Source: Minisyncoccia bacterium (GTDB lineage Bacteria > Patescibacteriota > Minisyncoccia > Phycocordibacterales > CSBR16-119). Taken from it: a stretch of 64,000 bases of DNA. A program made the position numbers and the translations under genes. The notes under the pieces are model-generated. The model saw only the letters and a list, made by a program, of their open reading frames with translations, did no database searches and was not told the origin of the DNA. The number at the start of each line of letters is the position of its first letter. The first letter of the stretch is position 1. Of the stretch, positions 12,461-58,810 are shown one piece after another. The stretch is from positions 8,911 through 72,910 of the forward strand of contig JBLHJW010000001.1 of the NCBI GenBank assembly GCA_047619465.1, in the 5' to 3' direction.

Positions 12461-12482
12461 GTTTACTTTTCAATTCATTGTC

Positions 12483-12598
12483 CTGGCGATGACCTACTTT
12501 CCCCATTAAGAGAGTATCATCAGCTCACGAGGGCTTAACTTCCGTATTCGGAATGAGAACGGGTGTGGCCCCTCCGATAAATCACCAGGACAATAAAT
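12483..12598 (-). rRNA. rrf: 5S ribosomal RNA
   Basis: The reverse complement reads GTCCTGGTGATTTATCGGAGGGGCCACACCCGTTCTCATTCCGAATACGGAAGTTAAGCCCTCGTGAGCTGATGATACTCTCTTAATGGGGAAAGTAGGTCATCGCCAGGAC, the canonical 5S helices I-V. Confidence 0.8.
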
Positions 12599-13164
12599 TC
12601 AAAAATTTTGAACCACCAAGGAATATCTCCCTGGTGGATTTTTGGTGAGCAAAACACAAAACCTACAGATAGCACGTAGCTCTCTACTGGGCCTTCTATA
12701 CCCCTAAAGCGATAACTCAACCAAAGCTAAAACTATGAATCACCTTTTAAGAGAAAAGATTTTCATACAATCAACTTATAACGGTTAAGAACAATCCAGA
12801 GCTAAATCAACATTACTGTTGTCGTTATTCGCAAATCCTCTATGTTTCCACTTCTGAATCTGCAATGTTCTAAATTTCACGCCCTCTCGGTTACCGTGTC
12901 TCCTCCGAGACCCCTCATAAACCAACTTCTGGTTTGTGTATTTGCTCACCACCCAAGCAGCTGTCATAAAAACAACTGACGGGTTAATGTCTTTTAAATC
13001 TTAACTGGTATTTTTATAATATATGGAGAATTTCTCCATATATTACCTTCGCTCGAGTATTATGAAAATAAATTTTCAAATACTTCTCGCTTGTTAATAT
13101 AAGCATTTTTACCATCTAAAAGCAGAGCTCTTGTAACTCGCTACCTTACGCTTTCCTAATAGGA

Positions 13165-16648
<3,484 letters not shown>

Positions 16649-16872
16649 TTCCTATTAGGAAAGCATAAAGTTACGAGTTAATTTCTTAACTTGATTTTGC
16701 TCACTACCACTAGCGAGACTTCATTCTACAATTGCTCTTAAACTTATTCCTGCCATGGAATAAGTTTATTCTTTTAGATGGTAAAAATACTTATATTTAC
16801 ATATTTTACCCCGAATTGTTTCTCTCAAAACAATTCTTAGTTAGATTTTAAAAGACGTCTATTATCAAAATG

Positions 16873-16902: not shown

Positions 16903-17291
16903 ATAACTAGCATTTATTCTTTCCCAATTCAGAAAAGAAAAAATCCGCTATTTGCAAGCGGGTTGTACAACATTAAATAATGTCTCTACTGTTACAACAC
17001 CCACTAACAAAAATGATTTTTTGTGATTCCGAACACGTAAGGACTAGTATAGTCAGACAGAGAAAAAAGTCAAGCCCCTAATAAATAGATTTTAGGGTAA
17101 AACCATTTTCTTGGTTAAGGGTCAAAATTACTATACTTTAAGGCTTTAAAATAAGACTTATAATCAATATCGTCTTTGCTAGGAGGTGTGATGAAGCAGT
17201 CCAGGATTTTGCCATTCTATCGCAGACGTAAATCTATACAATAATTCTTTTTTCTTGCCAAAAAAAAGGAGGGGGTCGGCTTTATTAATCC

Positions 17292-20008: not shown

Positions 20009-20017
20009 ATAGTTTTT

Positions 20018-20088
20018 TGTTTTATTAAGACAATCGAGGAGCATAATCACTGCTTGAATAAATTATGTCCGAGCGAAATCTTAATATA
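20018..20088. repeat. ~70-nt hairpin element in the rplJ 5' UTR, copy 1 of 2
   Basis: TTTTATTAAGACAATCGAGGAGCATAAT…ATTATGTCCGAGCGAAATCTTAATATA: outer (TATTAAGA/TCTTAATA) and inner (GGAGCATAAT/ATTATGTCC) inverted repeats. The same element with a shorter loop occurs at 36655-36720. Confidence 0.6.
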
Positions 20089-24465: not shown

Positions 24466-24645
24466 CTTGTCTTTGAGAACGCAGTGCGACTTTATCCCGT
24501 TAGAGCAAAGCGAGTTATAGGATAAGAAGTACTCTTGTGGTGAAGCAATCCAGTCTTACCTACTAGACCTAAGTGTTTTTGCACGAATCAAAGCAATTTT
24601 TGTCATTGCAAGGCACGAAGCAATCCAGAATTAATAACTTTTATT
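24466..24645. repeat. copy/fragments of the dispersed hairpin repeat family (core CTGGATTGCTTCG…CTCGCAATGAC), inverted relative to the other loci
   Basis: GTCATTGCAAGGCACGAAGCAATCCAG at 24605-24631 is the rc of the core. A partial GGTGAAGCAATCCAG and a GCAAAGCGAGT…AGTACTCTT block (related to 21100-21127) are also present. Confidence 0.55.
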
Positions 24646-30708: not shown

Positions 30709-32166
30709 TTATTCATTTGGCTTCAATCTTGGATAGCAGCAACGATGCCGATAACCAGTCTCATTTTGACCATTATGGGTAACGCTTTGACAATCACCAT
30801 TACCCCAAAGAACAAAATCGTTATTAATATCACTAGTTGCATCATCAACCCATTCCCAATTATTTTTCATATTAACTAAATTTAACTGGCTTTCAAGTTC
30901 GCATGCAGCTCTCCATTGACCAGAAGAACAAAGGTTTCCATCTTTCTCAACACATTTTTTTGATGATTGCCACCAGCTAAGTCCACCAGAGTCGTCTATA
31001 TCAATACAGTAGTTTGCGTTAACGGCAACAGAACCTGTTGGACAACCAATAGAAATAGGGTGAGTTATAACAACACTATCCCCTCCCGAAATAAAAATTG
31101 TATCACCTGAGATACTAAGATATTGAGCTATCCCTAGACCAGGATCGCCCTGCAATCCTTGTAGGCCTGTTGGACCAATGGGTCCAGTTGACCCCTGCAA
31201 ACCAATGATTCCTTGTAATCCCTGAAGTCCTTGTTGTCCTTCAGAGCCTGTGGGACCTGTGGGGCCTGTACTTCCAATCAATCCTTGAGGTCCAGTAGAG
31301 CCAGTAGGTCCTTCTTGGCCATTTAACCCTGTATTACCAACTAAGCCTTGAACCCCTTGCGGTCCGGTAGATCCTGATATCCCTTGCTGACCTTGAATCC
31401 CATTGGGACCCATGACACCTGTTGACCCAGTGGGACCAGATAAACCAATCAAACCTTGTGGACCTTGGATTCCATCTACACCAGTAATACCTTGGGGGCC
31501 AGTGGGTCCAATAGACCCTTGTACACCGATAGAACCATCTTGACCTGGAAACCCTTGAGGGCCTTCTGGACCTGTTGTTCCCTGGATTCCTACAACACCT
31601 TGTGGACCGGTTGCACCTATACTTCCTTGCAGGCCTGTGGAACCTGTCAAACCCTGAGGTCCAGTAGGACCAATTGATCCAGTCAGACCTTGCGGCCCTG
31701 ATAAGCCAATAGGTCCTGTCGGTCCAGCGGGACCTGCAGGGCCAGGATCTTCTGAGCTACCTGATGTTTCAGCATACAGCGCATACGGAACAGATAAGAG
31801 CTGAGAAGCGCCTAGGAATTCATACTCCAAAGAAGATCCATTCCAGAGTTCAATCTTCAGGAAATAATTTCCTGAAGACCAATCTATAGAAGAAAATACA
31901 CCAGAAACAACTTGACCACCTCCAACATGAAGAGTGAATAATCCAAACTGATTTGTTGTAGGACTGTGAACCTCCTGATAGGATGGCTGGTTCTGAGGGT
32001 CAGTAGGTACGATAGAGATTCTAATCTCAATTGATTGATTTACCATAATTATACCTCCAGCGTCACGAGCTACAGCTTGATAGCTAAACCTCTGTGGTGG
32101 AGAAGTCTGCTGAGCAAAAAGAGGGTAAGAAAAAAGCATAGTCACGGCAAGCATTAGATTTTTCAT
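30709..32166 (-). CDS. secreted collagen-like (Gly-X-Y triple-helix repeat) protein with a Cys-rich C-terminal domain
   Basis: 485 aa. Signal peptide [20 protein letters not shown], an N-terminal ~120-aa globular domain, ~200 aa of uninterrupted GPxGxxG repeats (…[22 protein letters not shown]…), and a C-terminal domain with 8 Cys (…[13 protein letters not shown]…CVEKDGNLC…CCYPR). Confidence 0.8.
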
Positions 32167-32214
32167 TATATTTGGTTTTGAATTTTACGATTTTCCAAAG
32201 TATATCAGAGTCTG

Positions 32215-32355
32215 TGATTCGTTGCGAGGAAAGTTAGTCTTTGCGAATGAAATGAAGCAATCCATTATTTCTGATGGTTTACTTCTAGATTGCCACGTCG
32301 GAATTCCTCGCAATGACGGGTTTTTGTTTTTGCGAGCTTGTCGAAGCAATCCAGG
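32215..32355. repeat. left cluster of the dispersed hairpin repeat family flanking the GIY-YIG gene
   Basis: Contains ATTGCCACGTCG (rc of CGACGTGGCAAT), CCTCGCAATGACGG and CGAAGCAATCCAGG (rc of the CCTGGATTGCTTCG core). Orientation is mixed. Confidence 0.6.
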
Positions 32356-32373
32356 ACCATGTATAATAAATTC

Positions 32374-32664
32374 ATGTCACGAAAACTTCCATGTATATAT
32401 ATACTTACAAACAAAAGAAACGGAACCCTTTACACCGGAGTAACTTCGAACCTGAAGCAACGAATTTATCAGCATAAAAATAATGAAACAGAGGGCTTTA
32501 CCAAAAAATATAAAGTTCACATACTTGTATTTTATGAATTTGGCGATTCTATGGAAGGAGCAATTATGAGAGAAAAACAGATAAAGGCTGGATCAAGAAA
32601 GAGAAAAATTGATTTAATAGAAAGAATGAACCCTCTCTGGGAGGATTTATTTGATACTCTGTAA
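32374..32664 (+). CDS. stand-alone GIY-YIG nuclease-domain protein (YhbQ/UPF0213-like, ~97 aa)
   Basis: MSRKLPCIYILTNKRNGTLYTGVTSNLKQRIYQHKNN…: the GIY…YIG spacing, conserved Arg and Glu downstream. The track ORF starts earlier at a TTG inside the repeat; ATG 32374 (or 32359) is more plausible. Confidence 0.7.
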   Translation: MSRKLPCIYILTNKRNGTLYTGVTSNLKQRIYQHKNNETEGFTKKYKVHILVFYEFGDSMEGAIMREKQIKAGSRKRKIDLIERMNPLWEDLFDTL

Positions 32665-32905
32665 GCTAATTCTGGATTGCTTCGTTCCTCGCAATGACGG
32701 GTTTTTTAAGAGGAATGGAACGTTGTGAAATGACATTGCAATCTATTTTGTCTTTGCGAGGAGTTTTGACGACGCGGCAATCTAGTTTATTTTATGGTTA
32801 TCTCTGGATTGCTTCGTTCCTCGCAATGACGAAGCTACTGGGTTGCCGAGTCTTGCATCCTCGCAAAGACAGGAATAACAAAAAACACCCTTGCGGGTGT
32901 TTTTT
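32665..32905. repeat. right cluster of the dispersed hairpin repeat family (two direct core copies plus the associated TGTCTTTGCGAGGAG…CGACGCGGCAATCTA module)
   Basis: CTGGATTGCTTCGTTCCTCGCAATGACG at 32672-32699 and 32804-32831. 32748-32790 is TGTCTTTGCGAGGAGTTTTGACGACGCGGCAATCTAGTTTATTTT, which recurs at 37243-37285. The region ends in a terminator hairpin. Confidence 0.65.
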
Positions 32906-32950: not shown

Positions 32951-35900
32951 TTATGAAGGGTTGATGTGTAGTTGTGAGTACTCGGTAGACATCATATCTC
33001 CACGCCATAGCACATCTGCTACTGCGTTTGCGAAGTTGGCTCCGTCAATTCCGAAGTCTAGATCTGCCCCTGTTGAGCTATCTAGTTGAAGTTGGATAGA
33101 GTCATTGTTTGCTGTCAAAGCTGAAGTATTGTATGTAACATACACTATTTCGCTTGATCCAGCTGAAACTACAAGCTCATTTGTAACGAAGTCCAAAGTG
33201 ATTTCGTTTGTAGCTGTTCCTGTAGCAACTGATGTTGATGAAAGAATAACACCAAGCTCATCTTTGAATGTCATCAAAAGATTTGCGGCTCCAGATGCTT
33301 GTACAACAATAGATTGCAATACAATCTTGTTACCGTTTGCGTTCTGGAATGTAACATCCTCATCTCCATTAGCTGTGATCTTTAGCTTTCCAACCTGATG
33401 GTTGGCGTTGTTTGCCAAAGTTGTGTTTCCAATTGTCATCCACTCAAATGTTGGGTATGACTGGAATAGGTTAGCTGAAGTAGATGTACCAACTCCTGCT
33501 GAGCCAATAGCTGAACCGGAAGCAAGTCCTGTTCCATCTATATCTCCTGCTGTGGAAATTGCAATATTAACTGCATTACCATTTGCTGCTGATGAGAAGT
33601 CTACATCTCGTGTTGAAGCTTTAACTGCAACCTTGATGTAGTCATTTCGTGGAATTTCCACTGCTCCTTCAGCCCACTCAGCTGTAGCTGTAGTACCTGT
33701 GTTAGCAACTGCAACTGCAGATCCTAAGTTGGCACCATTCTTATCCATAGCTTGGAAGTAGTATGTATCTACTACTGATGAAGCTCCGGTTCCTCCAGCT
33801 GTCATAATAAGTGAGTCAAGCTCGATATCTTCAACGCTGCTAGCAGCAAGTCGGAAGATAGCAAGTGTTTCCATACCTCCTTGATTATCATCAAGAACTA
33901 CTCCTTCGTTTGGTGATGAAGAATCAACTGTGACTGTAAGTACTCCTGTAGACTCTGAAGTCATAGCTTGTCCTGCACCTGAAGGTGTAACTACAATTGC
34001 ATCTCCTGTATCAGCTCCTGTAGCTGTTAAAGCAGAAAGGTCAACTGTGTAAGTATCGTTTGATCCTGCAGCTGTTGATCCTGATGAAAGATCAGCAACA
34101 AATGCAACTCGTACAGATGTATCTTTTGCAACTGTGAACACCTCTGAAAGGTTGTACGCTTGTGTTGCAGCTGAAATCTGTTCTAGATCAGAAATCTCAG
34201 TTTCGAATCGGTCTCCTCTTTCTGAGTCATTTCCTGTTCCGGCAAGGTCAGCCCATAGAGATGCATTGTCAAGGTCAGCATATGCTGCAGTACCTGCAAT
34301 AGCAAATCCAGCAGTAATATCTGAAATCTCTACATCCTCTCCTGATCCTACAGCAGAGAAGTCAAGGTGTGCCCATACGAAGTCTTGTGCTCCAACGGCC
34401 ACATCTTGTGCTCCTGGTGTTGTAAGAGTTGTAGCAGTAAGTGAACCAGCTTCAATTGTAAGCGTGTTACCTGCTACTGCTGATGCTGGTGCTGCTGTAA
34501 GAGTATCATTTGATGATATTCCCTTTACAGTAATTGTTGTTGCTGAGTTATCAACTCCAGCTTTAATTGTATCTGCTGAACCAAAAGCTGTTCCAAGATC
34601 AGCGTATACACCAACCTTTGTAGTTCCTACAAGGAATTCCATTGTGTCAGTAAATACGATCTTGTCTCCTGATACAGCGTCATTTGGACCTGAAAGCGTT
34701 TCTCCAGATTCGAAGTTCTTAAGAACAACGTTTGTAACATCTCCAAAAGCAGGACCTCCTGCTAGATCGATGTCAACTTGGAAGCTTGTTACTTGAACCT
34801 CTTCTCCTGTAACGATAACGTCCAGAACTGCAAGAAGCCTGTCATCTCCTTCTGTAACATTTCCTGTTGCTGGTGTCTCTGAAGACTTAGCTACAGTAAA
34901 CGCTCCTGCTGCGATAGTTTGGTTTGATGTACCTTGTCCATCAAAGCCAGATGCCCATGATCCGTTTGTAGGTGTAATGTAGTAACCATAATCGTTACCC
35001 ATTGCCATTACTCGAACGTCTGAACCATCTGTTAGGTCAGCGTTAATTGTAAGTCCTGTTCCATCTGTAAGATCAAGTCGGATTTGGAATCGGTGATTAT
35101 CACCTTCTTCCAATACCATTCCTAGACCGTTGAATGTAGCAAGTCCTTGTGCATCCCACCCTGATACTGTAGCGATTGTTGCTCCATCTGTAACAGAGTA
35201 AAGCTCAATGTTTGCAGCGTCATCTGAAGATGCTGATCCTCGCTTTTCAACTTGGATCTGCTCGATTGTTACAGCTTCTGTAGAACCTGCAGTAATCTTG
35301 AACTTGTTAACGATAACGTCAGTGTCTCCAACATCTGGTGTTGAGTCTGAAGTTGTTCCGTCCTTAGCAACAGTAAGAGAACCAATTGATAGGCTCAATA
35401 TTTCGAACTCATCTCCTGTAACAGGGAATGATCCGTCTACGTCAGGTGAACCAGAGAAATCGATATCATCCATAGAATCAATACCGAAGTATGCTGATTG
35501 CCCCTGTGTAGCTACTGAGTCAACTCCTGCTCGCAAGTAGAACATTGTAGTTTCACCAGACATAACCTCTAGGTTAGGTGAGAATGAAAGTTTTACTTGG
35601 TTTGAAGAGTTAAGTGTTCCAGCTGATGTAAGTGCTACACCATCTGCATCAAGAACCTTTAGGTTCTCCCAGTTAGAGTTAACTGACTGACCGTATCGAG
35701 TGAACGTAATGTCATCGATAGATAGGTCGTCTTCTCCAGCAGAGATTTCAAATGCAAACACGTTAGCGTTTCCACCTGTTGCGATCATTCCTCCATCAAG
35801 AGAAACTCCGTCAACCTCTCCTGCTCCAACTCCTTCTGGTGTTGATGATTCTCCTTCTGATTCTCCTTCTGATTCACAGTTGTCAGAAACATAAGCTAGG

Positions 35901-36358
35901 TATGAAGCCTGTGTGTTTGGTCCCCATACACCATCTGGTGTTGTTCCAATAATTTCTTGGAAGTACTGTACAACACCTGTTGTAAGTGGTCCAAAGGCTG
36001 AGTCCTCAACTAGAGGTGCCATAGATCCGTTTGAAAGATCTAGAATTTGGTTCATAGCTTTTTGAATTGCTAGAACGTTTGCTCCTGACATACCACTTCG
36101 AACAATTGATGATGTTCCGTAAGTATCACATGAAGTCATTGATGATGAACCGCTTCCCATTGTTGGCTCACCGTTAAGTGCTGATTCCACATCGGCTAGT
36201 GTTGATGCTGGTGCATCAAAAGATGATAGCAATCCTAGGATCGCATCGATCTGAGTTTGTGTTAGAGCTTGGGCTGTTGGAAGTGCAACGAATCCGAAGA
36301 TTGTTGTAGCAACCAAAAGCGCAGTCAAAGCTCCTGAAAGTTTTTTAGTAATTTCCAT
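32951..36358 (-). CDS. giant secreted surface protein (1135 aa) with an N-terminal peptidoglycan-binding-like domain and a long S/T/G/A/D-rich beta-repeat region
   Basis: Signal peptide MEITKKLSGALTALLVATTIFGFVALPTAQA. The segment …GMSGANVLAIQKAMNQILDLSNGSMAPLVEDSAFGPLTTGVVQYFQEIIGTTPDGVWGPNT… matches the PG_binding_1 pattern (G..V..LQ..L… DG.FG..T..AV..FQ). An acidic SEGESEGES linker follows, then ~900 aa of repetitive beta-strand-like sequence. Confidence 0.6.
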   Translation of the reverse strand: MEITKKLSGALTALLVATTIFGFVALPTAQALTQTQIDAILGLLSSFDAPASTLADVESALNGEPTMGSGSSSMTSCDTYGTSSIVRSGMSGANVLAIQKAMNQILDLSNGSMAPLVEDSAFGPLTTGVVQYFQEIIGTTPDGVWGPNTQASYLAYVSDNCESEGESEGESSTPEGVGAGEVDGVSLDGGMIATGGNANVFAFEISAGEDDLSIDDITFTRYGQSVNSNWENLKVLDADGVALTSAGTLNSSNQVKLSFSPNLEVMSGETTMFYLRAGVDSVATQGQSAYFGIDSMDDIDFSGSPDVDGSFPVTGDEFEILSLSIGSLTVAKDGTTSDSTPDVGDTDVIVNKFKITAGSTEAVTIEQIQVEKRGSASSDDAANIELYSVTDGATIATVSGWDAQGLATFNGLGMVLEEGDNHRFQIRLDLTDGTGLTINADLTDGSDVRVMAMGNDYGYYITPTNGSWASGFDGQGTSNQTIAAGAFTVAKSSETPATGNVTEGDDRLLAVLDVIVTGEEVQVTSFQVDIDLAGGPAFGDVTNVVLKNFESGETLSGPNDAVSGDKIVFTDTMEFLVGTTKVGVYADLGTAFGSADTIKAGVDNSATTITVKGISSNDTLTAAPASAVAGNTLTIEAGSLTATTLTTPGAQDVAVGAQDFVWAHLDFSAVGSGEDVEISDITAGFAIAGTAAYADLDNASLWADLAGTGNDSERGDRFETEISDLEQISAATQAYNLSEVFTVAKDTSVRVAFVADLSSGSTAAGSNDTYTVDLSALTATGADTGDAIVVTPSGAGQAMTSESTGVLTVTVDSSSPNEGVVLDDNQGGMETLAIFRLAASSVEDIELDSLIMTAGGTGASSVVDTYYFQAMDKNGANLGSAVAVANTGTTATAEWAEGAVEIPRNDYIKVAVKASTRDVDFSSAANGNAVNIAISTAGDIDGTGLASGSAIGSAGVGTSTSANLFQSYPTFEWMTIGNTTLANNANHQVGKLKITANGDEDVTFQNANGNKIVLQSIVVQASGAANLLMTFKDELGVILSSTSVATGTATNEITLDFVTNELVVSAGSSEIVYVTYNTSALTANNDSIQLQLDSSTGADLDFGIDGANFANAVADVLWRGDMMSTEYSQLHINPS

Positions 36359-36654: not shown

Positions 36655-36720
36655 TTTTTTTATTAAGACAAGCGAGGAGCATAGTTAAAATTAATTATGT
36701 CCGAGCGAATTCTTAATATA
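36655..36720. repeat. copy 2 of the rplJ-leader hairpin element, preceded by an orphan hairpin+T-run
   Basis: TTTTTTATTAAGACAAGCGAGGAGCATAGTTAAAATTAATTATGTCCGAGCGAATTCTTAATATA; compare 20018-20088. Immediately upstream (36621-36654) is GACGGATACATGT-GGCA-ACATGTATCGTCC followed by TTTTTT. Confidence 0.6.
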
Positions 36721-37164: not shown

Positions 37165-37295
37165 TAAATTTCTGGATTTCTTCGTTCCTCGCAATGACGA
37201 AGTGGTAGTTCTGAGTTGCTTCGTTCCTCGCAATGACGAGTATTTGTCTTTGCGAGGAGTATTTACGACGTGGCAATCTATTTTATTTACCTTTA
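37165..37295. repeat. cluster of the dispersed hairpin repeat family
   Basis: TCTGGATTTCTTCGTTCCTCGCAATGACGAAG (37171-37202), GAGTTGCTTCGTTCCTCGCAATGACGAG (37213-37240), then TGTCTTTGCGAGGAGTATTTACGACGTGGCAATCTATTTTATTT (37243-37285). Confidence 0.65.
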
Positions 37296-40900: not shown

Positions 40901-42127
40901 ATGCAACAAGTATTTACAGAAATGGCGAAGTGTAAATTATTAATTATAAGATTAAAACATAACAATATGGCAGCAAAAAAACCCAAAGAGAAAGAGGAAA
41001 AAATTGATCAACCTAAGAAAACTGAAAAGGAAGATTCTGTGAAGCCAGTGGAAGAAAAGAAAATAACCGCTGTCGAGAAAAAAGAAATTGAAAAAGCAGA
41101 AAAGGTAAAGGAGGCTGATGCAAATGCAATCCAAGACACCATCAAGTCCATCCAAACAAAGTTCGGTGAAGGAGCAATCATGAAGCTTGGAGGTATTCCA
41201 AGTGTCGATATTGGAGCTGTTTCCACTGGATCACTAGGACTCGATGCTGCGCTTGGAGTCGGCGGACTACCCAAAGGACGAGTTGTAGAGATATATGGAC
41301 CAGAATCATCTGGTAAAACAACACTGTCTCTACACGTAATAGCAGAAGCTCAAAAAGCAGGAGGTGTGTGTGCTTTTATAGATGCCGAACATGCTATCGA
41401 CCCAGAATATGCCAAGAAGCTTGGAGTAGATATTGACAACCTTCTAATATCTCAACCAGACACAGGAGAGCAAGCACTGGAGATCACAGAGAGCCTTGTG
41501 CGTTCTGGAAAGATAACACTTATCGTTATTGACTCTGTGGCAGCTCTAACACCTAAAGACGAAATAGAGGGAGATATGGGAGCCTACCACGTAGGGAAAC
41601 AGGCTAGACTGATGTCACAGGCTTTGCGTAAGCTTACAGCTCTGACAGCCAAGACAAATACAATGATCATCTTCATTAACCAGATCCGAATGAAAATCGG
41701 AGTTATGTTTGGTTCTCCGGAGACAACACCTGGAGGAAAAGCTCTAAAGTTCTACACTTCTGTAAGGCTTGATATCAGAAGAATTGCTCAGATTAAAAAA
41801 GGTGAAGATGTTGTAGGAGCTCGAACACGAGTAAAGGTGGTAAAAAACAAAGTTGCCGCACCGTTTAAGAAAACTGAATTCGATATTATCTACAATGAAG
41901 GAATCTCACGATCAGGAGAACTTCTTGCTCTAGGAGAAAAGATGGGAATAGTTAAGAAGTCAGGAGCATCCTACAGCTACCTCCCTGCCGACGGTGGAGA
42001 TGAAGTGAAGCTTGCTCGTGGATATGATGCAACTCGAAAAGTTCTTGAAGATAAAGACAACAAGAAACTTCTCTCTTCCCTGCTTAAAGATGTAAAGAAA
42101 GGGTTGAAGGATGAGAAGAATCAGTAA
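40901..42127 (+). CDS. recA: recombinase RecA with a Lys/Glu-rich N-terminal extension
   Basis: Core …[61 protein letters not shown]… with conserved L1/L2 loops. The first 50-75 aa are KE-rich ([29 protein letters not shown]…). The likely true start is MAAKKPK at 40967. Confidence 0.9.
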
Positions 42128-42150: not shown

Positions 42151-42804
42151 ATGGAAAAATCACCTTACGAAAATTTAAATACTAGAGGGTCAGAATTAGA
42201 TAAGAGAGAAAAACCCAGAAGTTCAGAATTGGATCTAAGATCCCAGGAAGAAATCGATGAAACAGCACACCTAAATCCAAAAGAATGGAAAGACTCTGAA
42301 GGGGTTGTTGATACAGATGATTCCTTTGAGACTTTTGGTGAGTCAAAAGAAGAAGAGGAGGAGGACGATCTGGGAGGAATAGTTACTGAAGAAGAAGTCG
42401 GTAATGTGGAAGCAGAAGATATAAGAATTAAAAGAGAGGCGGACCTAGATAGAATGGAAAAGAAGGCGGCGTTAGAGATTACTGATATAGACAGAGAAGC
42501 TACTCTAATGAAAGAGCTCCAGCAAGATCACCCGGAAAGAGACGAAGAGCCCTTCCGACAAAGCATGACAGGTCACATTCTTGGTTCGGAAAAAATTGAC
42601 AGAAGGGAGATCAAGGATTTTAAAAAGAGACAGACTAACTGGGATAATCAAAAGACAGAAAAAAAGAAAGATTATTATCGTGCAGATAATCCAGAGAAAG
42701 TGGCAGCTAAAAAAGATGCAAAAAAAGGAAACAAAAAAGGATTCTTTGGAAAAGTTCTCAACATGTTTAAAAGTGACGATAGCGACCAAAACAAAGCAGC
42801 ATAA
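42151..42804 (+). CDS. hypothetical highly charged (E/D/K-rich) low-complexity protein
   Basis: 217 aa, predicted disordered. Not RecX-like despite its position after recA. Confidence 0.35.
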   Translation: MEKSPYENLNTRGSELDKREKPRSSELDLRSQEEIDETAHLNPKEWKDSEGVVDTDDSFETFGESKEEEEEDDLGGIVTEEEVGNVEAEDIRIKREADLDRMEKKAALEITDIDREATLMKELQQDHPERDEEPFRQSMTGHILGSEKIDRREIKDFKKRQTNWDNQKTEKKKDYYRADNPEKVAAKKDAKKGNKKGFFGKVLNMFKSDDSDQNKAA

Positions 42805-54982: not shown

Positions 54983-57900
54983 TTATATTTTATCAATTTT
55001 AATCTCTCCACCAAAGTCCACCTCTACGACACCTGCTGTGTTTTGGAATTCATTTGAAAAACTCTCATAAATGTCTTTATTATTTTCTGGGAGGGTGAGT
55101 CTTATTCTATCTTCTGGATTTAAGCCGGCTTCTTTTCTCATCTTCTGAACCTCTCGAAGAAGATCTCTGGCCTTCCCTTCTATTTCTAGTTCTGGAGTCA
55201 GCACAGTATCGATAGCCAGATCGGGACCGATCACAACTTCTTTTACATTTAGTTCGTCAGCAATCAACTCCAGGTATTCGCCATCTAGCATTTCTGTGAT
55301 TGTTAAAGACGCCAAAGGCTGTCGTACATTTATATTTGCTTTGGAACGAAGCTCAAGTGCCTCTGAAATAACAGCTCGAGTTTTTTGCATTGACGCAAGA
55401 GTCTTGGCTTCTTTTTTCTTTCCAAACATCTTTTGGAAAAATCCTCCTGTCGTTTTTATCTCTGCCCAGTTTTCTAGGTGAACTGACTCCAGCTTTCCTC
55501 CAACACGTCCATACATGTCTTCTGCGAAGAACGGAGTAAAAGGTGCCATCAGAATAGATAGTCTCTCAAGGACAGACCTTGTTGTAGCTAGGGCGAACTT
55601 TCGATCTGCTTCGTCTTGTCCTTTGAACCTATCTCTACTTCTTCGAATATACCACTGTGACAAATCACCGATAAGCTCGCGAATAGCTCGAGTTGGTTCA
55701 AGTAGCTGGTAAGCGTCAAGTTTTTTTGTTACAAGCTCTTCTAACTCGTCTGTCTTTTCTAGGATCCATCGATCTAGAACATTCGGTGAGGTCTTTGGAT
55801 CTACTGACAAATCTACTGAGCCAGAGTACATTTCATAGAACTTCACCACGTTATCCAAAAGGCCAAACACCTTTCTCTGTGTTTCTGTGATTGTCTTCTC
55901 GTCGAAGTTCTTCGACTCTCCTGGTCCATTTACTGAGTACATCCAGAAACGAAGTGAATCTACTCCGAACTTCGTAACGGCATCCCAGGGGTTTACCGTG
56001 TTCCCTTTTGATTTAGACATCTTTTGTCCTTTCTCGTCATTTACGAGACCTAGACTAATTACGTTTTTATAGACCTTTCCCTTACCTACAAGGTTTCCTA
56101 TTGCATGTAGTGTATAGAACCAACCACGTGTTTGATCCATTCCCTCCGAGATGAAGTCAGCCGGTACTCCTACTTTGTCCACATAATCTTTGTTTTCAAA
56201 TGGATAGTGCTCTTGAGCAAATGGCATAGATCCTGAATCAAACCATACATCCATCACTTCTTTTACTCTTTTGAAGTCTTTTCCATCTTTCTCTAAAACT
56301 ACTTCGTCGATAAACGGTTTGTGGAGATCTAGCTTGTGATTACTATCATGAGGTATTGGTACAAAGTCTAGCTCTCGAACCTCTGCATTATCATAAGCTT
56401 CAAAATCATCGTCAAAGCTACAATCACAAGAATCTGGAGTGTGCCCTGTCACACTCACATGAAGCAACCAAAGAGGAGTCCCATGAGAGACAAAAAGTAT
56501 ATTTTTGTCTCTGTACTTTTCTTCTAATTCATACAATACAGGAGCCACACGATTCATCACGTCTTGTGAAGATTCTCCTCCACCTATTTTCACGTGGAAT
56601 TGTTCTGACCCCTTTTCTCTTATAAAAGAGTGGTACTCTTCGTGATTTTTGCCTTCAAATTCTCCGACCCCTACCTCAACAAGTCTTTTGTCAAAAACAA
56701 GTTGGTCGTCAGAGAGTTTCAATCCTGCTTTCACAAGTTCGGCTGTCATTTTTGTTCTCATAAATGGCGAGGCGACTATTAGATCAATGTTTTTTGATTT
56801 CAGTTTTTCTACAGCTTGCCTTACCTGGGCTTCTCCCTTTTCGGTGACTGGATCTATGTTTTCTAAAACAGTACTTAGAACTTTTTTGACATTGCTCTCT
56901 GACTGACCATGACGCATGGCGAAGTATTTATTCCCAGATTTCTTTACGTTCTTTTTTATATCCTCTATAGAACCTGCAACCAACATCTCTCCGTCCTCTG
57001 CCTGCCAGATAGGAAGTGGTGTTCCCCAGTATCGCTCTCGAGAAATTGCCCAGTCTTTCAAGTCTTTTAGCCACTCACCAAAACGTCCATCTTTGATGTG
57101 TGATGGCTCCCAATTTATAGTTTGGTTCTCTGCAATCATCTTTGACTTCACTTCTTGCATGTTTATATACCAAGAGTCTCGTGCGTAGTAGATAAGAGGA
57201 GTCTTACATCGCCAACAGTGAGGGTAGCTGTGCTCGTACTTTTCCTTGCTAAAATATGTTTTGTTGTCTTGTAGATGCTTAATCACATCAATATCCATAG
57301 TCGGCTTACCATCAGTCATCTCTTTTACAGATCTACCTGAAAAGTCACCCATTCCATCCACAAAAGTTCCGTCTTCTTTTACAACATGCATCTTTGGAAG
57401 GCTAACCTTGTTTCCAAGTTCGAAGTCATCCTGTCCGTACATCACAGCGGTATGTACAATCCCTGTTCCGTCTGTAGTTGTCACGAAGTCAGCCGCATAT
57501 ACTTTGTATGCGTTTTCTATATTCTTAATTTCTTCTTTTTCTGCAAGGTCTTTGAAGTATGGGAATAATGGCTTGTATTCTTTGCCAACTAGTTCAGATC
57601 CCTTTATTTCTTCAGTAATTTCATAAATTTCTCCGTTGTAAAAATACCTCTTAGAATCACTTGTGGGATTAACTTTTTGATCTTCTTTAGCAAAGATGCT
57701 TTTAGCAAGAATAATAACACTTTCCGTATCTAGGTCTGATGGAGTTTTGTGTTCCTTATCATTAGGTATTGTAGATGTTGAAGCAACAGCTATTGTGGAT
57801 GTTGAAGCAACTTTTTTTGCCTTTACATAATCTATCTTTTCTCCAACAGCTAGAGCAACATTTCCAGGAAGAGTCCATGGGGTTGTAGTCCAGGCCAGGA

Positions 57901-58579
57901 GATATGTTCCTTTTTCATCTACTAGCTCAAACTTTGCAGTAATAGAAATATCTTTTACATCTTCATACCCTTGGGCAAGCTCGTGAGATGAGAGTGTGGT
58001 TCCACAACGGGGACACCACGGAACGACCTTGTAGTCTTTGTAAATTAGATTCTGATCAGCTACCTTTTTTATTACCCACCAAACAGACTCCATGTAGTGA
58101 TTGTCATAAGTAATATACGGATCATCTAAATCCACCCAGAAACCAATTCTTCGTGTGAAGTCCTCCCACTCTGATTTATATTCCCAAACAGACTCCTTAC
58201 ACTTTTGGTTAAAGGCTTCAATTCCATAGTCTTCGATCTCAAGTTTTGATTTCAGTCCGAGTTGCTTCTCCACCTGAAGCTCCACAGGAAGCCCGTGAGT
58301 ATCCCATCCCCCCTTTCGGCGAACATTGTATCCCTGCATAGTTTTATATCTTGGAATTGCATCCTTGAAAGCTCGCGCTGCCAAGTGATGAATACCTGGT
58401 CGCCCATTTGCAGTCGGCGGTCCTTCAAAGAAAACAAACTCACCCTTTGGCGAATCTTTCTTTGTAGTCTTGGCGAAAATTTCTTTCTCATTCCATTCGT
58501 TCAAAATCTCCCCTTCGCGCTCAGCGTAGGGACTCTGTTTCTCTTCTTTTTCTTGGTATTTTTTGTATTCGTTGCTCAT
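54983..58579 (-). CDS. ileS: isoleucyl-tRNA synthetase with an embedded histidine-phosphatase (PGAM-like) domain
   Basis: PTANGRPGIHHL (HIGH-type), a CP1 editing domain with …TTTPWTLPGN…, CxxC knuckles, and KMSKSKGNTVNP (KMSKS). Between WAISRERYWGTPLP and DVWFDSG the protein carries ~250 aa instead of the usual ~60, including …YFAMRHGQSESN… and …ILFVSHGTPLWLL…. Start is set at MSNEYKK (58579). Confidence 0.85.
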   Translation of the reverse strand: MSNEYKKYQEKEEKQSPYAEREGEILNEWNEKEIFAKTTKKDSPKGEFVFFEGPPTANGRPGIHHLAARAFKDAIPRYKTMQGYNVRRKGGWDTHGLPVELQVEKQLGLKSKLEIEDYGIEAFNQKCKESVWEYKSEWEDFTRRIGFWVDLDDPYITYDNHYMESVWWVIKKVADQNLIYKDYKVVPWCPRCGTTLSSHELAQGYEDVKDISITAKFELVDEKGTYLLAWTTTPWTLPGNVALAVGEKIDYVKAKKVASTSTIAVASTSTIPNDKEHKTPSDLDTESVIILAKSIFAKEDQKVNPTSDSKRYFYNGEIYEITEEIKGSELVGKEYKPLFPYFKDLAEKEEIKNIENAYKVYAADFVTTTDGTGIVHTAVMYGQDDFELGNKVSLPKMHVVKEDGTFVDGMGDFSGRSVKEMTDGKPTMDIDVIKHLQDNKTYFSKEKYEHSYPHCWRCKTPLIYYARDSWYINMQEVKSKMIAENQTINWEPSHIKDGRFGEWLKDLKDWAISRERYWGTPLPIWQAEDGEMLVAGSIEDIKKNVKKSGNKYFAMRHGQSESNVKKVLSTVLENIDPVTEKGEAQVRQAVEKLKSKNIDLIVASPFMRTKMTAELVKAGLKLSDDQLVFDKRLVEVGVGEFEGKNHEEYHSFIREKGSEQFHVKIGGGESSQDVMNRVAPVLYELEEKYRDKNILFVSHGTPLWLLHVSVTGHTPDSCDCSFDDDFEAYDNAEVRELDFVPIPHDSNHKLDLHKPFIDEVVLEKDGKDFKRVKEVMDVWFDSGSMPFAQEHYPFENKDYVDKVGVPADFISEGMDQTRGWFYTLHAIGNLVGKGKVYKNVISLGLVNDEKGQKMSKSKGNTVNPWDAVTKFGVDSLRFWMYSVNGPGESKNFDEKTITETQRKVFGLLDNVVKFYEMYSGSVDLSVDPKTSPNVLDRWILEKTDELEELVTKKLDAYQLLEPTRAIRELIGDLSQWYIRRSRDRFKGQDEADRKFALATTRSVLERLSILMAPFTPFFAEDMYGRVGGKLESVHLENWAEIKTTGGFFQKMFGKKKEAKTLASMQKTRAVISEALELRSKANINVRQPLASLTITEMLDGEYLELIADELNVKEVVIGPDLAIDTVLTPELEIEGKARDLLREVQKMRKEAGLNPEDRIRLTLPENNKDIYESFSNEFQNTAGVVEVDFGGEIKIDKI

Positions 58580-58580
58580 A

Positions 58581-58810
58581 TATATATAAATTAAAAAACT
58601 CGTCCTAGAACTACGACCGAAGTCGCAATCCAAGGACGAGCTTCTCTCGTGGTACCACCTTGTTTTACCAAGCATATAGCTTGGCCTCATTACAGCTATT
58701 TCGGGCTTACCCGTTGGGTTCTATTTTCCTATTTCCTCCGCATGGGCAGGCATATTAGAATTTCTTCCCAAAGCTCCAGAATGATTAAGTCCATCAACGC
58801 TCGCATGTAC
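58581..58810 (-). promoter_or_regulatory. candidate T-box riboswitch leader of ileS, with an extended -10 promoter
   Basis: On the minus strand: TGTTATAAT (extended -10), a ~210-nt leader, the T-box-like sequence AACAAGGTGGTACCACGAG (consensus AANNNGGGTGGNACCGCG), then the terminator CTCGTCCT…AGGACGAG + TTTTTT. The terminator's 5' half can pair with the T-box 3' half to form the antiterminator. An ATC (Ile) codon sits in a candidate specifier context (GACTTAATCATTC). Confidence 0.45.

Follow-up and report, generated by a model that had tools for sequence, protein, structure and literature searches.

What is the task of a small nuclease gene that sits between clusters of short palindromic repeats, and do gene and repeats belong together? 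The question is raised by a locus in a 64-kb stretch of DNA, in the following termed the window, in which an open reading frame (ORF) at 32374-32664 on the plus strand encodes a GIY-YIG protein of 96 amino acids and is surrounded by about ten repeat copies, 4-5 units upstream and 4-5 units downstream. The window resembles a genome of the Patescibacteria (Candidate Phyla Radiation, CPR), with a GC content of 38.5% and with nearest homologues of the neighbouring gene products annotated as Parcubacteria, Paceibacterota or Patescibacteria. We consider it very probable that the locus constitutes an Ssn-SRM module, i.e. a gene of the Ssn family, here termed ssn, accompanied by the repeats (SRM) which its product would recognise.

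The gene after which this family is named, ssnA, encodes a 94-aa single-domain GIY-YIG protein (cd10448), and the gene is flanked in many bacteria by NTS, the repeat of Neisseria (CGTCATTCCCGCGMAVGCGGGAATCYRG), and by kindred Ssn-related motifs (SRM; Chenal et al. 2025, PMC11893778). SsnA binds the repeat hairpin exclusively as single-stranded DNA (ssDNA) and cuts it a few nucleotides upstream, leaving duplex DNA and RNA untouched. SsnA depends critically on the three bases in front of the palindrome and on the C behind it, and mutations of Y6, Y17 and E64 abolish cleavage by the Neisseria meningitidis enzyme (PMC11893778). A first-pass annotation of the window, made from the sequence alone, had viewed the repeats as a dispersed hairpin family of the kind of repetitive extragenic palindromic sequences (REPs) or of MITEs (miniature inverted-repeat transposable elements), the GIY-YIG protein being the associated nuclease, a view which matches the published Ssn and SRM/NTS system.

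Identity of the GIY-YIG protein

The ORF comprises 96 codons and a stop codon, which confirms the stand-alone GIY-YIG gene of the first-pass annotation (counted there as 97 aa), and PF01541 (GIY-YIG) is the sole Pfam domain of its product, spanning residues 7-78 with E=3.5e-17. As reference for the homology to SsnA, the N. gonorrhoeae orthologue was used in place of the N. meningitidis protein. It was taken from a gonococcal chromosome filed in PLSDB as a plasmid, is 94 aa long, carries Y6, Y17 and E64 as given in PMC11893778, and is accompanied by 16 NTS copies in the surrounding 3.3 kb. (Two N. gonorrhoeae entries of PLSDB, NZ_CP119140.1 and NZ_CP119142.1, of ca. 2.17 Mb each, are labelled plasmids and are evidently chromosomes.) The window protein aligns with this orthologue over 88 aa free of gaps at 55% identity (BLASTP, E=2e-35), and the tblastn E-value of 8e-25 against it lies below the cut-off of 1e-10 applied in PMC11893778. 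Its residues Y9, Y20 and E67 align with Y6, Y17 and E64 of meningococcal SsnA and show no variation in alignments of 16 and of 46 sequences; Y9, Y20, R30, H34, E67 and N86 are invariant across the family-sample alignment.

The AlphaFold model of the window protein (pLDDT 94.7) consists of one compact domain with a confidently predicted GIY-YIG fold, the nearest solved folds being those of the UPF0213 protein BH0048, of Slx1 and of the N-terminal domain of UvrC. No Ssn-family structure is present among the solved structures searched, and the NCBIfam search gave no model specific for the family. Neither Pfam nor the AlphaFold model indicates an extra DNA-binding domain, and neither Pfam nor NCBIfam a transposase domain of a known kind; a search against the PADLOC defence models yielded a single meaningless 14-bit match. 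The window protein, with 96 aa and a single GIY-YIG domain, belongs to the Ssn family of site-specific ssDNA endonucleases, and it agrees with the published systems in its size of ca. 95 aa, in the catalytic residues and in the presence of the repeat on both flanks of the gene.

The repeats around ssn

In forward orientation the repeat copies follow the consensus YGTC-WTTGCGAG-[variable]-GCAATCYAG, in which a YGTC tag at the 5′ end is followed by a short palindrome (WTTGC...GCAAT) that encloses the variable insert, and by a C-rich tail (CYAG) at the 3′ end. The sequence CCTCGCAATGACG matches the window at 10 positions with up to two mismatches, as against 0.49 expected and a value of 10 reached by none of 100 shuffles; the other half of the unit, CTGGATTGCTTCG, has 9 matches as against 1.16 expected. 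Subtype a, CGTCATTGCGAGGAACGAAGCAATCCAG, is found on the minus strand at 32672-32699, 32804-32831, 37172-37199 and 37211-37238, with the 28-nt sequence CTGGATTGCTTCGTTCCTCGCAATGACG exact at both of the first two positions, and subtype b, TGTCTTTGCGAGGAG-N-CGACGYGGCAATCTAG, on the plus strand at 32749-32785 and 37245-37280. The first-pass annotation had described two modules. Their copies are real, but they do not represent separate modules, since the reverse complement of module A (CGTCATTGCGAGGAACGAAGCAATCCAG) has module B (TGTCTTTGCGAGGAG..CGACGYGGCAATCTAG) as one of its subtypes, and the two therefore represent the orientations and subtypes of one family. The further copies which it had placed near 37165-37295 and 24466-24645 were recovered at 37172-37280 and 24468-24628.

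Common to window units and NTS are CGTCATT as the start, AATCC as the end and a C which follows the palindrome; with the published SRM in general, the window units share the AT-started palindrome, the C-rich tail, the clustering near surface-related genes and a number of orphan copies which far exceeds that of the gene. Unlike the NTS, which has a stem of 8 bp and a loop of 3-4 nt, the palindrome of the window units (ATTGC/GCAAT) provides a stem of 5 bp around an insert of 10-22 nt. Judged by their sequence, the repeats are SRM, presumably cognate to the ssn gene of the window. Literature searches by repeat DNA strings and repeat-derived peptides retrieved no relevant match.

Association of gene and repeat in other genomes

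Homologues of the window protein with 62-83% identity are found in Patescibacteria, Methylophaga, Nitrosomonas, Halothiobacillaceae and others. The first eight loci stem from Patescibacteria, Methylophaga and Nitrosomonas. In each of them, arrays which contain the core CTGGATTGC...CTCGCAATGACG lie to either side of the gene, the array unit being ca. 134 nt long in Methylophaga and ca. 232 nt in Nitrosomonas. Of 80 further metagenomic loci, which encode relatives of 51-68% identity, 66 (83%) contain GTCATTGCGAG with at most one mismatch at a distance of up to 700 nt from the gene and 54 (68%) contain it to either side, compared with a chance level of ca. 2% by our own estimate. The loci devoid of GTCATTGCGAG contain other CGTC hairpin subtypes, paired with a different protein subclade. 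Gene and repeat are associated across phyla.

The repeat also occurs far beyond the window. A scan of one genome per species with the pattern GGATTGC-N(3-33)-CTCGCAATGAC detected at least 120 genomic loci in many phyla. Among the 80 matches listed are Alpha-, Beta-, Gamma- and Deltaproteobacteria, Helicobacter, Bacteroidota, Chloroflexota, Cyanobacteria, Melainabacteria, Firmicutes, Planctomycetota, Zixibacteria, Armatimonadetes and Patescibacteria, and Bradyrhizobium, sphingomonads, Rickettsiales and Micavibrio appear as well. Both the presence of the motif outside the window and its co-occurrence with relatives of the GIY-YIG protein, on which the first-pass annotation had made its repeat family depend, were thus observed. 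Among 331 units of relatives, 320 have C or T at position -1 and 319 have C or T directly after GCAATC; in GC-rich relatives, the variable insert is in many cases itself a small GC-rich hairpin, e.g. CCCGCC-GAAG-GCGGG.

Nitrosomonas nitrosa and related contigs carry 1-2 Ssn genes within long tandem arrays of the ca. 232-nt units; these arrays are located inside a polysaccharide cluster, with Wzy_C or GFO/IDH-type genes on one side and heparinase II/III and GT4 genes on the other, and the numbers of genes and units vary between assemblies. In another Patescibacteria genome, ssn follows the gene of a 2686-aa Peptidase_S74 protein and lies near that of an immunoglobulin-like surface protein.

The arrangement of gene and units is recurrent. 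According to the matches listed in the genome scan, neighbouring orphan units are ordered forward-spacer-reverse in 79 of 94 pairs, most commonly with a gap of ca. 21-24 nt, and the order forward unit-gene-reverse unit is realised in 35 of the 54 metagenomic loci flanked on both sides. Because the order is the same with the gene in between, the gene occupies the place of the spacer (ca. 22 nt) of an orphan dimer. Some loci consist of unit, gene and unit alone, ca. 400 nt in total. In the relatives, the start of the forward unit is most commonly found ca. 50 nt upstream of the gene, and the reverse unit has its tag ca. 30-60 nt past the stop codon, a pattern into which the window distances of 48 nt upstream and 34 nt downstream fall. 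The inverted pair next to the window gene is formed by a forward unit at 32326-32355 and a reverse unit at 32672-32699. The inverted clusters postulated by the first-pass annotation hence hold for this pair, but not for the clusters as a whole, as each flank contains both orientations. Two other descriptions of the repeats were abandoned: the unit is not read as A-loop-A′, as the genome scan gave the order A′-spacer-A in the 79 of 94 pairs mentioned, and a CRISPR-like array is out because Methylophaga and Nitrosomonas repeat whole units including the "spacers".

Gain, loss and subtypes

Repeats and gene are gained and lost between related genomes, a polymorphism which the first-pass annotation had suggested looking for and which is manifested in an indel at 37.2 kb and in differing gene sites. 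In a relative with a neighbouring DeoR-like protein of 96% identity, the three-unit cluster at 37172-37280 is missing, the difference being a clean indel of ca. 100 nt; a target-site duplication was not found in this single filled/empty alignment, the flanks of which are too diverged to be read. A Joint Genome Institute (JGI) relative with a 65% identical DeoR-like protein contains a 96-aa GIY-YIG gene at the same site as the window, between the genes of wall and collagen-like proteins. At the orthologous intergenic site of the relative GCA_041294345.1 (15100-15200 of that locus), where the DeoR-like protein is 64% identical, both the GIY-YIG gene and ATTGCGAG-type repeats are lacking and three GTCATCCTGAA units are present, the last of which is a full hairpin (GTCATCCTGAATTTATTTCAAGATC). 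GTCATCCTGAA represents a different SRM subtype, found in other loci with the Trp-type Ssn clade, and its occurrence at the site orthologous to window positions ca. 32200-32900 implies that the same spot has hosted two repeat subtypes. In a third relative, ssn is located in the same syntenic block between the genes of RecA and elongation factor P (EF-P), flanked by GTCTTTGCGAG units.

Protein and repeat subtypes vary together. Of 77 cases in which the protein has the motif REKQ[IL]K-x-G-x-R, which reads KAGSR in the window protein, 76 have ATTGCGAG-type repeats. A second group of proteins, to which the Neisseria type (KKWNR) belongs and from which the window protein differs, has K-x-W-x-R; here 11-12 of 15 cases show CGTC hairpins of the classical kind with an 8-bp stem, for example ATTCCCG, ATCCTGA or ATCCCGG. 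The cases are not phylogenetically independent, so that this co-variation of Gly and Trp may reflect either a determinant of specificity or no more than a clade.

Repeat copies and gene neighbourhood in the window

Upstream of ssn, the series of copies begins with a remnant of the 5′ half of a unit (TGTGATTCGTTGCGAGGAA, 32213-32231, plus strand), a weak assignment read from the sequence, and continues with a degenerate forward unit (AGTCTTTGCGAATGAAATGAAGCAATCCAT, 32236-32265, plus strand), a hybrid of subtypes a and b which is forward on the minus strand (CGTCATTGCGAGGAATTCCGACGTGGCAATCTA, 32286-32318), and the forward unit nearest to the gene (GTTTTTGCGAGCTTGTCGAAGCAATCCAGG, 32326-32355, plus strand), whose 5′ tag is degenerate and which contains a -35-like hexamer. 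Downstream, the subtype a unit nearest to the gene (32672-32699, minus strand), with its tag 34 nt past the stop codon, is followed by a collapsed or remnant unit with 3 mismatches (GAAATGACATTGCAATCTA, 32727-32745, plus strand). Next comes a head-to-head dimer, the left arm of which is a forward subtype b unit (TGTCTTTGCGAGGAGTTTTGACGACGCGGCAATCTAG, 32749-32785, plus strand) and the right arm a subtype a unit identical to that at 32672-32699 (32804-32831, minus strand). A divergent unit (TGTCTTTGCGAGGATGCAAGACTCGGCAACCCAG on the minus strand, 32838-32871), counted among the hybrid or degenerate copies, closes the series.

An orphan cluster downstream of the DeoR-like gene is composed of two subtype a units on the minus strand (37172-37199 and 37211-37238) and a forward subtype b unit on the plus strand (37245-37280). 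Three further orphan copies lie on the plus strand. The forward unit at 24601-24628 (TGTCATTGCAAGGCACGAAGCAATCCAG) is related to subtype a and located between convergent glycosyltransferase genes; the copy at 24468-24553 (TGTCTTTGAGAA ... GTGAAGCAATCCAG) is a weak assignment, which can be read either as one degenerate unit interrupted by a long insert or as a pair of half-sites; and a degenerate forward unit between the 23S rRNA gene and an MscS-like gene (CGTCTTTGCTAGGAGGTGTGATGAAGCAGTCCAGG, 17171-17205) is additional to the copies reported in the first-pass annotation.

The window units are intergenic and distributed within and around a polysaccharide and surface-protein region, with the one further copy by the 23S rRNA gene, and they often lie at a gene's 3′ end or where two genes converge, as at 24.5 kb, 32.7-32.9 kb and 37.2 kb. 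The polysaccharide cluster extends from 21 to 30.3 kb and encodes Wzy_C, Bac_transf, GT4, GT2 and Caps_synth proteins, two sulfotransferases and a flippase. A gene for a collagen-repeat protein (30709-32166) precedes ssn, which is followed on its 3′ side by the gene of a 1135-aa protein with a peptidoglycan-binding domain (32951-36358) and then by the genes of the DeoR-like protein, FtsK and RecA. The claim that all copies lie at the borders of this island does not hold, as those at 24.5 kb are inside the polysaccharide cluster, between convergent genes.

Several features of the window are independent of the repeats. RecA (40901-42127, plus strand) is 408 aa long with a RecA domain that begins at residue 76, which corresponds to an N-terminal extension of ca. 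75 aa; the RecA proteins of relatives have 341-385 aa. A segment of ca. 70 nt is present at 20017-20088 and 36655-36720 with 93-94% identity. On the minus strand it comprises the upstream region and approximately the first nine codons (ATGCTCCTCGNTTGTCTTAATAAAA) of the ribosomal protein L10 gene and of a 57-aa ORF preceding the 1135-aa wall protein, respectively, and it may be a duplicated promoter or leader. The 1235-aa isoleucyl-tRNA-synthetase-like protein (54983-58690, minus strand; tRNA-synt_1, Anticodon_1) carries an unusual insertion, a His_Phos_1 histidine phosphatase domain (E=1.4e-30) placed in the middle of the synthetase at residues 591-754. The 23S rRNA match (12481-16658, minus strand) covers 3505 nt compared with 2925 nt of the model; ca. 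580 nt are thus extra sequence, the match encloses no ORF of 90 aa or more, and the 5S rRNA gene is adjacent. 16S rRNA and tRNA genes were not found in the 64-kb window.

Discussion

The system of an Ssn nuclease and its hairpin repeats was already described in 2025, and the basic picture is unchanged by the window locus. In Neisseria, SsnA lowers transformation by NTS-carrying DNA and the NTS cluster near surface and virulence genes, and it was proposed that around surface genes the nuclease trims incoming ssDNA and thereby modulates recombination (PMC11893778). In analogy to the four characterised enzymes, the window protein would bind to one of the two strands of a unit in single-stranded DNA and cut a few nucleotides 5′ of the tag, whereas duplex DNA and RNA would be spared. 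If ssDNA is recognised and nicked at the units, the dispersed units would mark the places where ssDNA is cut. Unit-bearing ssDNA, for instance incoming transforming DNA, might then be trimmed at the units, which would modulate recombination around unit-flanked genes, and the same cleavage may underlie the spread and loss of units. We infer both the cleavage specificity of the window protein and its role in this organism from this analogy. With regard to the first-pass annotation, which had called the nuclease "mobilising or associated", the second attribute is supported, and a mobilising role would go beyond the known activity, which is site-specific ssDNA cleavage beside a hairpin; its alternative of recombination scars delimiting the exchange of surface-gene cassettes is unsupported as worded, the related idea from Neisseria being ssDNA trimming that modulates recombination.

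Several observations weigh against the assignment as an Ssn-SRM module. The published SRM string, HGTCWYN(0-2)YYVSBRHN(0-5)WNVSBRGN(0-2)RNCYNB (PMC11893778), matches in our implementation the canonical NTS but none of the window units; its sole match in the window (42513-42544) is unrelated to the repeats, and matches are present in 9 of the 80 related loci. The string fails on the window units because of its YY positions, where the subtype has GC, and we regard it as a search aid rather than as a definition. Cleavage has been assayed for the enzymes of N. meningitidis, N. elongata, N. wadsworthii and Wolbachia (PMC11893778), which work on hairpins with 8-bp stems, and the repeat subtype of the window is not among them. 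In addition, the 5-bp stem of a single window unit yields a folding energy of -2.4 kcal/mol, which does not surpass that of shuffled sequence (z ca. 0) and compares with -8.9 kcal/mol for the NTS, so that the form recognised by the window enzyme may differ from the 8-bp-stem hairpins. Strong folding is confined to dimers, the head-to-head dimer at 32745-32835 reaching -19.6 kcal/mol as ssDNA (z=-7); the hairpin-forming capacity claimed in the first-pass annotation is thus real mainly as pairing between two units and weak for single ones. A GIY-YIG ORF was found in 2 of the at least 120 motif-bearing 8-kb loci, which means that most copies are orphans far from any nuclease gene. Finally, natural transformation is, to our knowledge, not known for this organism.

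The window repeats also have to be compared with two groups of REPs. CGTC-tagged REPs are characterised by a CGTC or TGTC tag, a stem started by A-T, a CCA-like 3-nt tail and mostly head-to-head dimers; they occur in several phyla, include the Neisseria dRS3 and some Rickettsia RPEs, have stems of 8-9 bp and loops of 4-5 nt with atypical loops in Bradyrhizobium CGTC-1, and "apparently lack a dedicated transposase" (Di Nocera et al. 2013, PMC3733652). We equate the window repeats with these REPs, four families of which are distinguished. The window repeats resemble them in tag, stem start, tail, mostly intergenic position, head-to-head dimers and occurrence in many phyla, and differ in the 5-bp stem, the longer insert and the accompanying GIY-YIG gene. 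Likewise, the layout of one small nuclease gene between inverted short palindromic repeats, the dispersal mostly as inverted doublets and a recognition thought to be on single-stranded hairpin DNA are reminiscent of REPIN-RAYT systems. Unlike in these, the enzyme is a GIY-YIG protein rather than an HUH/tyrosine (IS200/IS605-like) transposase, the tag is CGTC/TGTC instead of GTAG, and the repeat core is conserved across phyla rather than lineage-specific.

The explanation that competes most seriously is that unit, ssn and unit form an autonomous selfish transposon of ca. 400 nt resembling an insertion sequence (IS), in which the GIY-YIG enzyme mobilises the element, gene-less dimers are its non-autonomous, MITE- or REPIN-like derivatives, and effects on recombination, if any, are incidental. 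This explanation overlaps with the Ssn-SRM module and does not exclude it, and in itself we regard it as possible but doubtful. The arrangement resembles terminal inverted repeats as in MITEs and IS, an IS-like layout having been remarked on for NTS-ssnA-NTS by the authors of PMC11893778, and Di Nocera et al. found no transposase for the CGTC REPs (PMC3733652). The gene at the spacer place of orphan dimers, the loci reduced to forward unit, gene and reverse unit, the two gene copies in the tandem arrays of Nitrosomonas, the differing gene sites inside one syntenic block and the repeat cluster as an indel between close relatives are likewise what a mobile element would produce. Moreover, Ssn proteins are 62-72% identical between phyla, compared with 65% for the neighbouring DeoR-like proteins between related Patescibacteria, and many homologues are located on very short contigs, as is typical of repeats. 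On the other hand, strand transfer by GIY-YIG enzymes is not known; those of homing and Penelope-like elements are not known to do more than cut. Neither a target-site duplication nor defined ends are readable in the sole filled/empty comparison, and the presence of the gene at the same site in the relative with the 65% identical neighbour protein points to a long residence. The gene was found neither in 50,697 phage records by tblastn nor in an IMG/VR scan of viral contigs, and 32 of 33 matches in the plasmid collection are on replicons typed as non-mobilisable, at least two of which are mislabelled chromosomes.

A further explanation would interpret the repeats mainly as RNA or transcription elements, i.e. 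as terminators, stabilisers of mRNA or promoters, in keeping with proposals for classical REPs, beside which the GIY-YIG gene is incidental; we consider it improbable. It would account for the intergenic units, often at gene 3′ ends or between convergent genes, and for the strong hairpin of the head-to-head dimer, and many REPs have been argued to be transcribed (PMC3733652). A promoter-like consensus match (TTGTCG-18 nt-TATAAT, 32338-32367, plus strand) overlaps the upstream unit, which contains its -35 element, and its -10 element ends 6 nt upstream of the ssn ATG; were this match a promoter, the ssn transcript would be leaderless or nearly so. However, promoter-like matches are no more common in the window than in shuffled sequence. 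The presence of the repeat near the gene in 83% of the 80 loci, together with the co-variation of protein and repeat subtypes, forms too strong an association for an incidental gene, and the conserved parts are the unpaired tag, the tail and a specific sequence, beyond a mere stem. Neisseria SsnA does not bind RNA (PMC11893778). At the gathering threshold, Rfam detected in the whole window the 23S and 5S rRNA and no family in the repeats, and a search of three related loci with E up to 1 gave one spurious microRNA match on the palindrome, in line with a repeat rather than a structured RNA gene, the distinction to which the first-pass annotation had drawn attention. Finally, a free-standing I-TevI-like homing endonuclease or a UPF0213/YhbQ-type repair nuclease with unrelated repeats is highly improbable, since the matches which suggest it, to the NCBIfam group I intron endonuclease family TIGR01453 (23 bits at a cut-off of 56) and to UPF0213 BH0048 as nearest solved structure (E ca. 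1e-3), are weak and confined to the shared catalytic core, the protein has, unlike I-TevI-type enzymes, no DNA-binding domain, intron or phage context, and its identity is 55% to the Ssn orthologue as against ca. 24% to BH0048.

Returning to the Ssn-SRM module, the new aspects concern the Patescibacteria-like host, a phylum not named in the main text of PMC11893778, the repeat subtype missed by the published string, the weak folding of single units as compared with dimers, and the Gly/Trp position of the protein, which tracks the repeat subtype. The subtype CGTCATTGCGAG...GCAATCCAG is the most widespread one, with at least 120 genomic loci in many phyla, and because the published search string misses it, the reported association of gene and repeat may be an underestimate. 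Gly versus Trp at residue 73 is a candidate specificity position, and a further specificity of ssDNA cutting might be of use for tool development.

More speculatively, the ATTGCGAG-type repeat and the Gly-type Ssn might constitute a self-propagating pair, in which Ssn would be the missing enzyme of the CGTC REPs, the gene-bearing locus a dimer with ssn as spacer, and gene-less dimers its non-autonomous forms; a dimer or two-unit structure would be recognised, and residue 73 (Gly/Trp) would help to set the subtype. We regard this extended proposal as rather unlikely in its entirety. The window locus places Ssn and SRM in a CPR genome beside giant wall and collagen-like proteins and a polysaccharide cluster, a surface-gene setting which echoes the clustering in Neisseria and is likewise found in capsule-type clusters of Nitrosomonas. 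If the proposal of a self-propagating pair were true, such a module might provide the reduced, epibiotic Patescibacteria with a possible control of the recombination of imported DNA at their surface-glycan and wall-protein loci.

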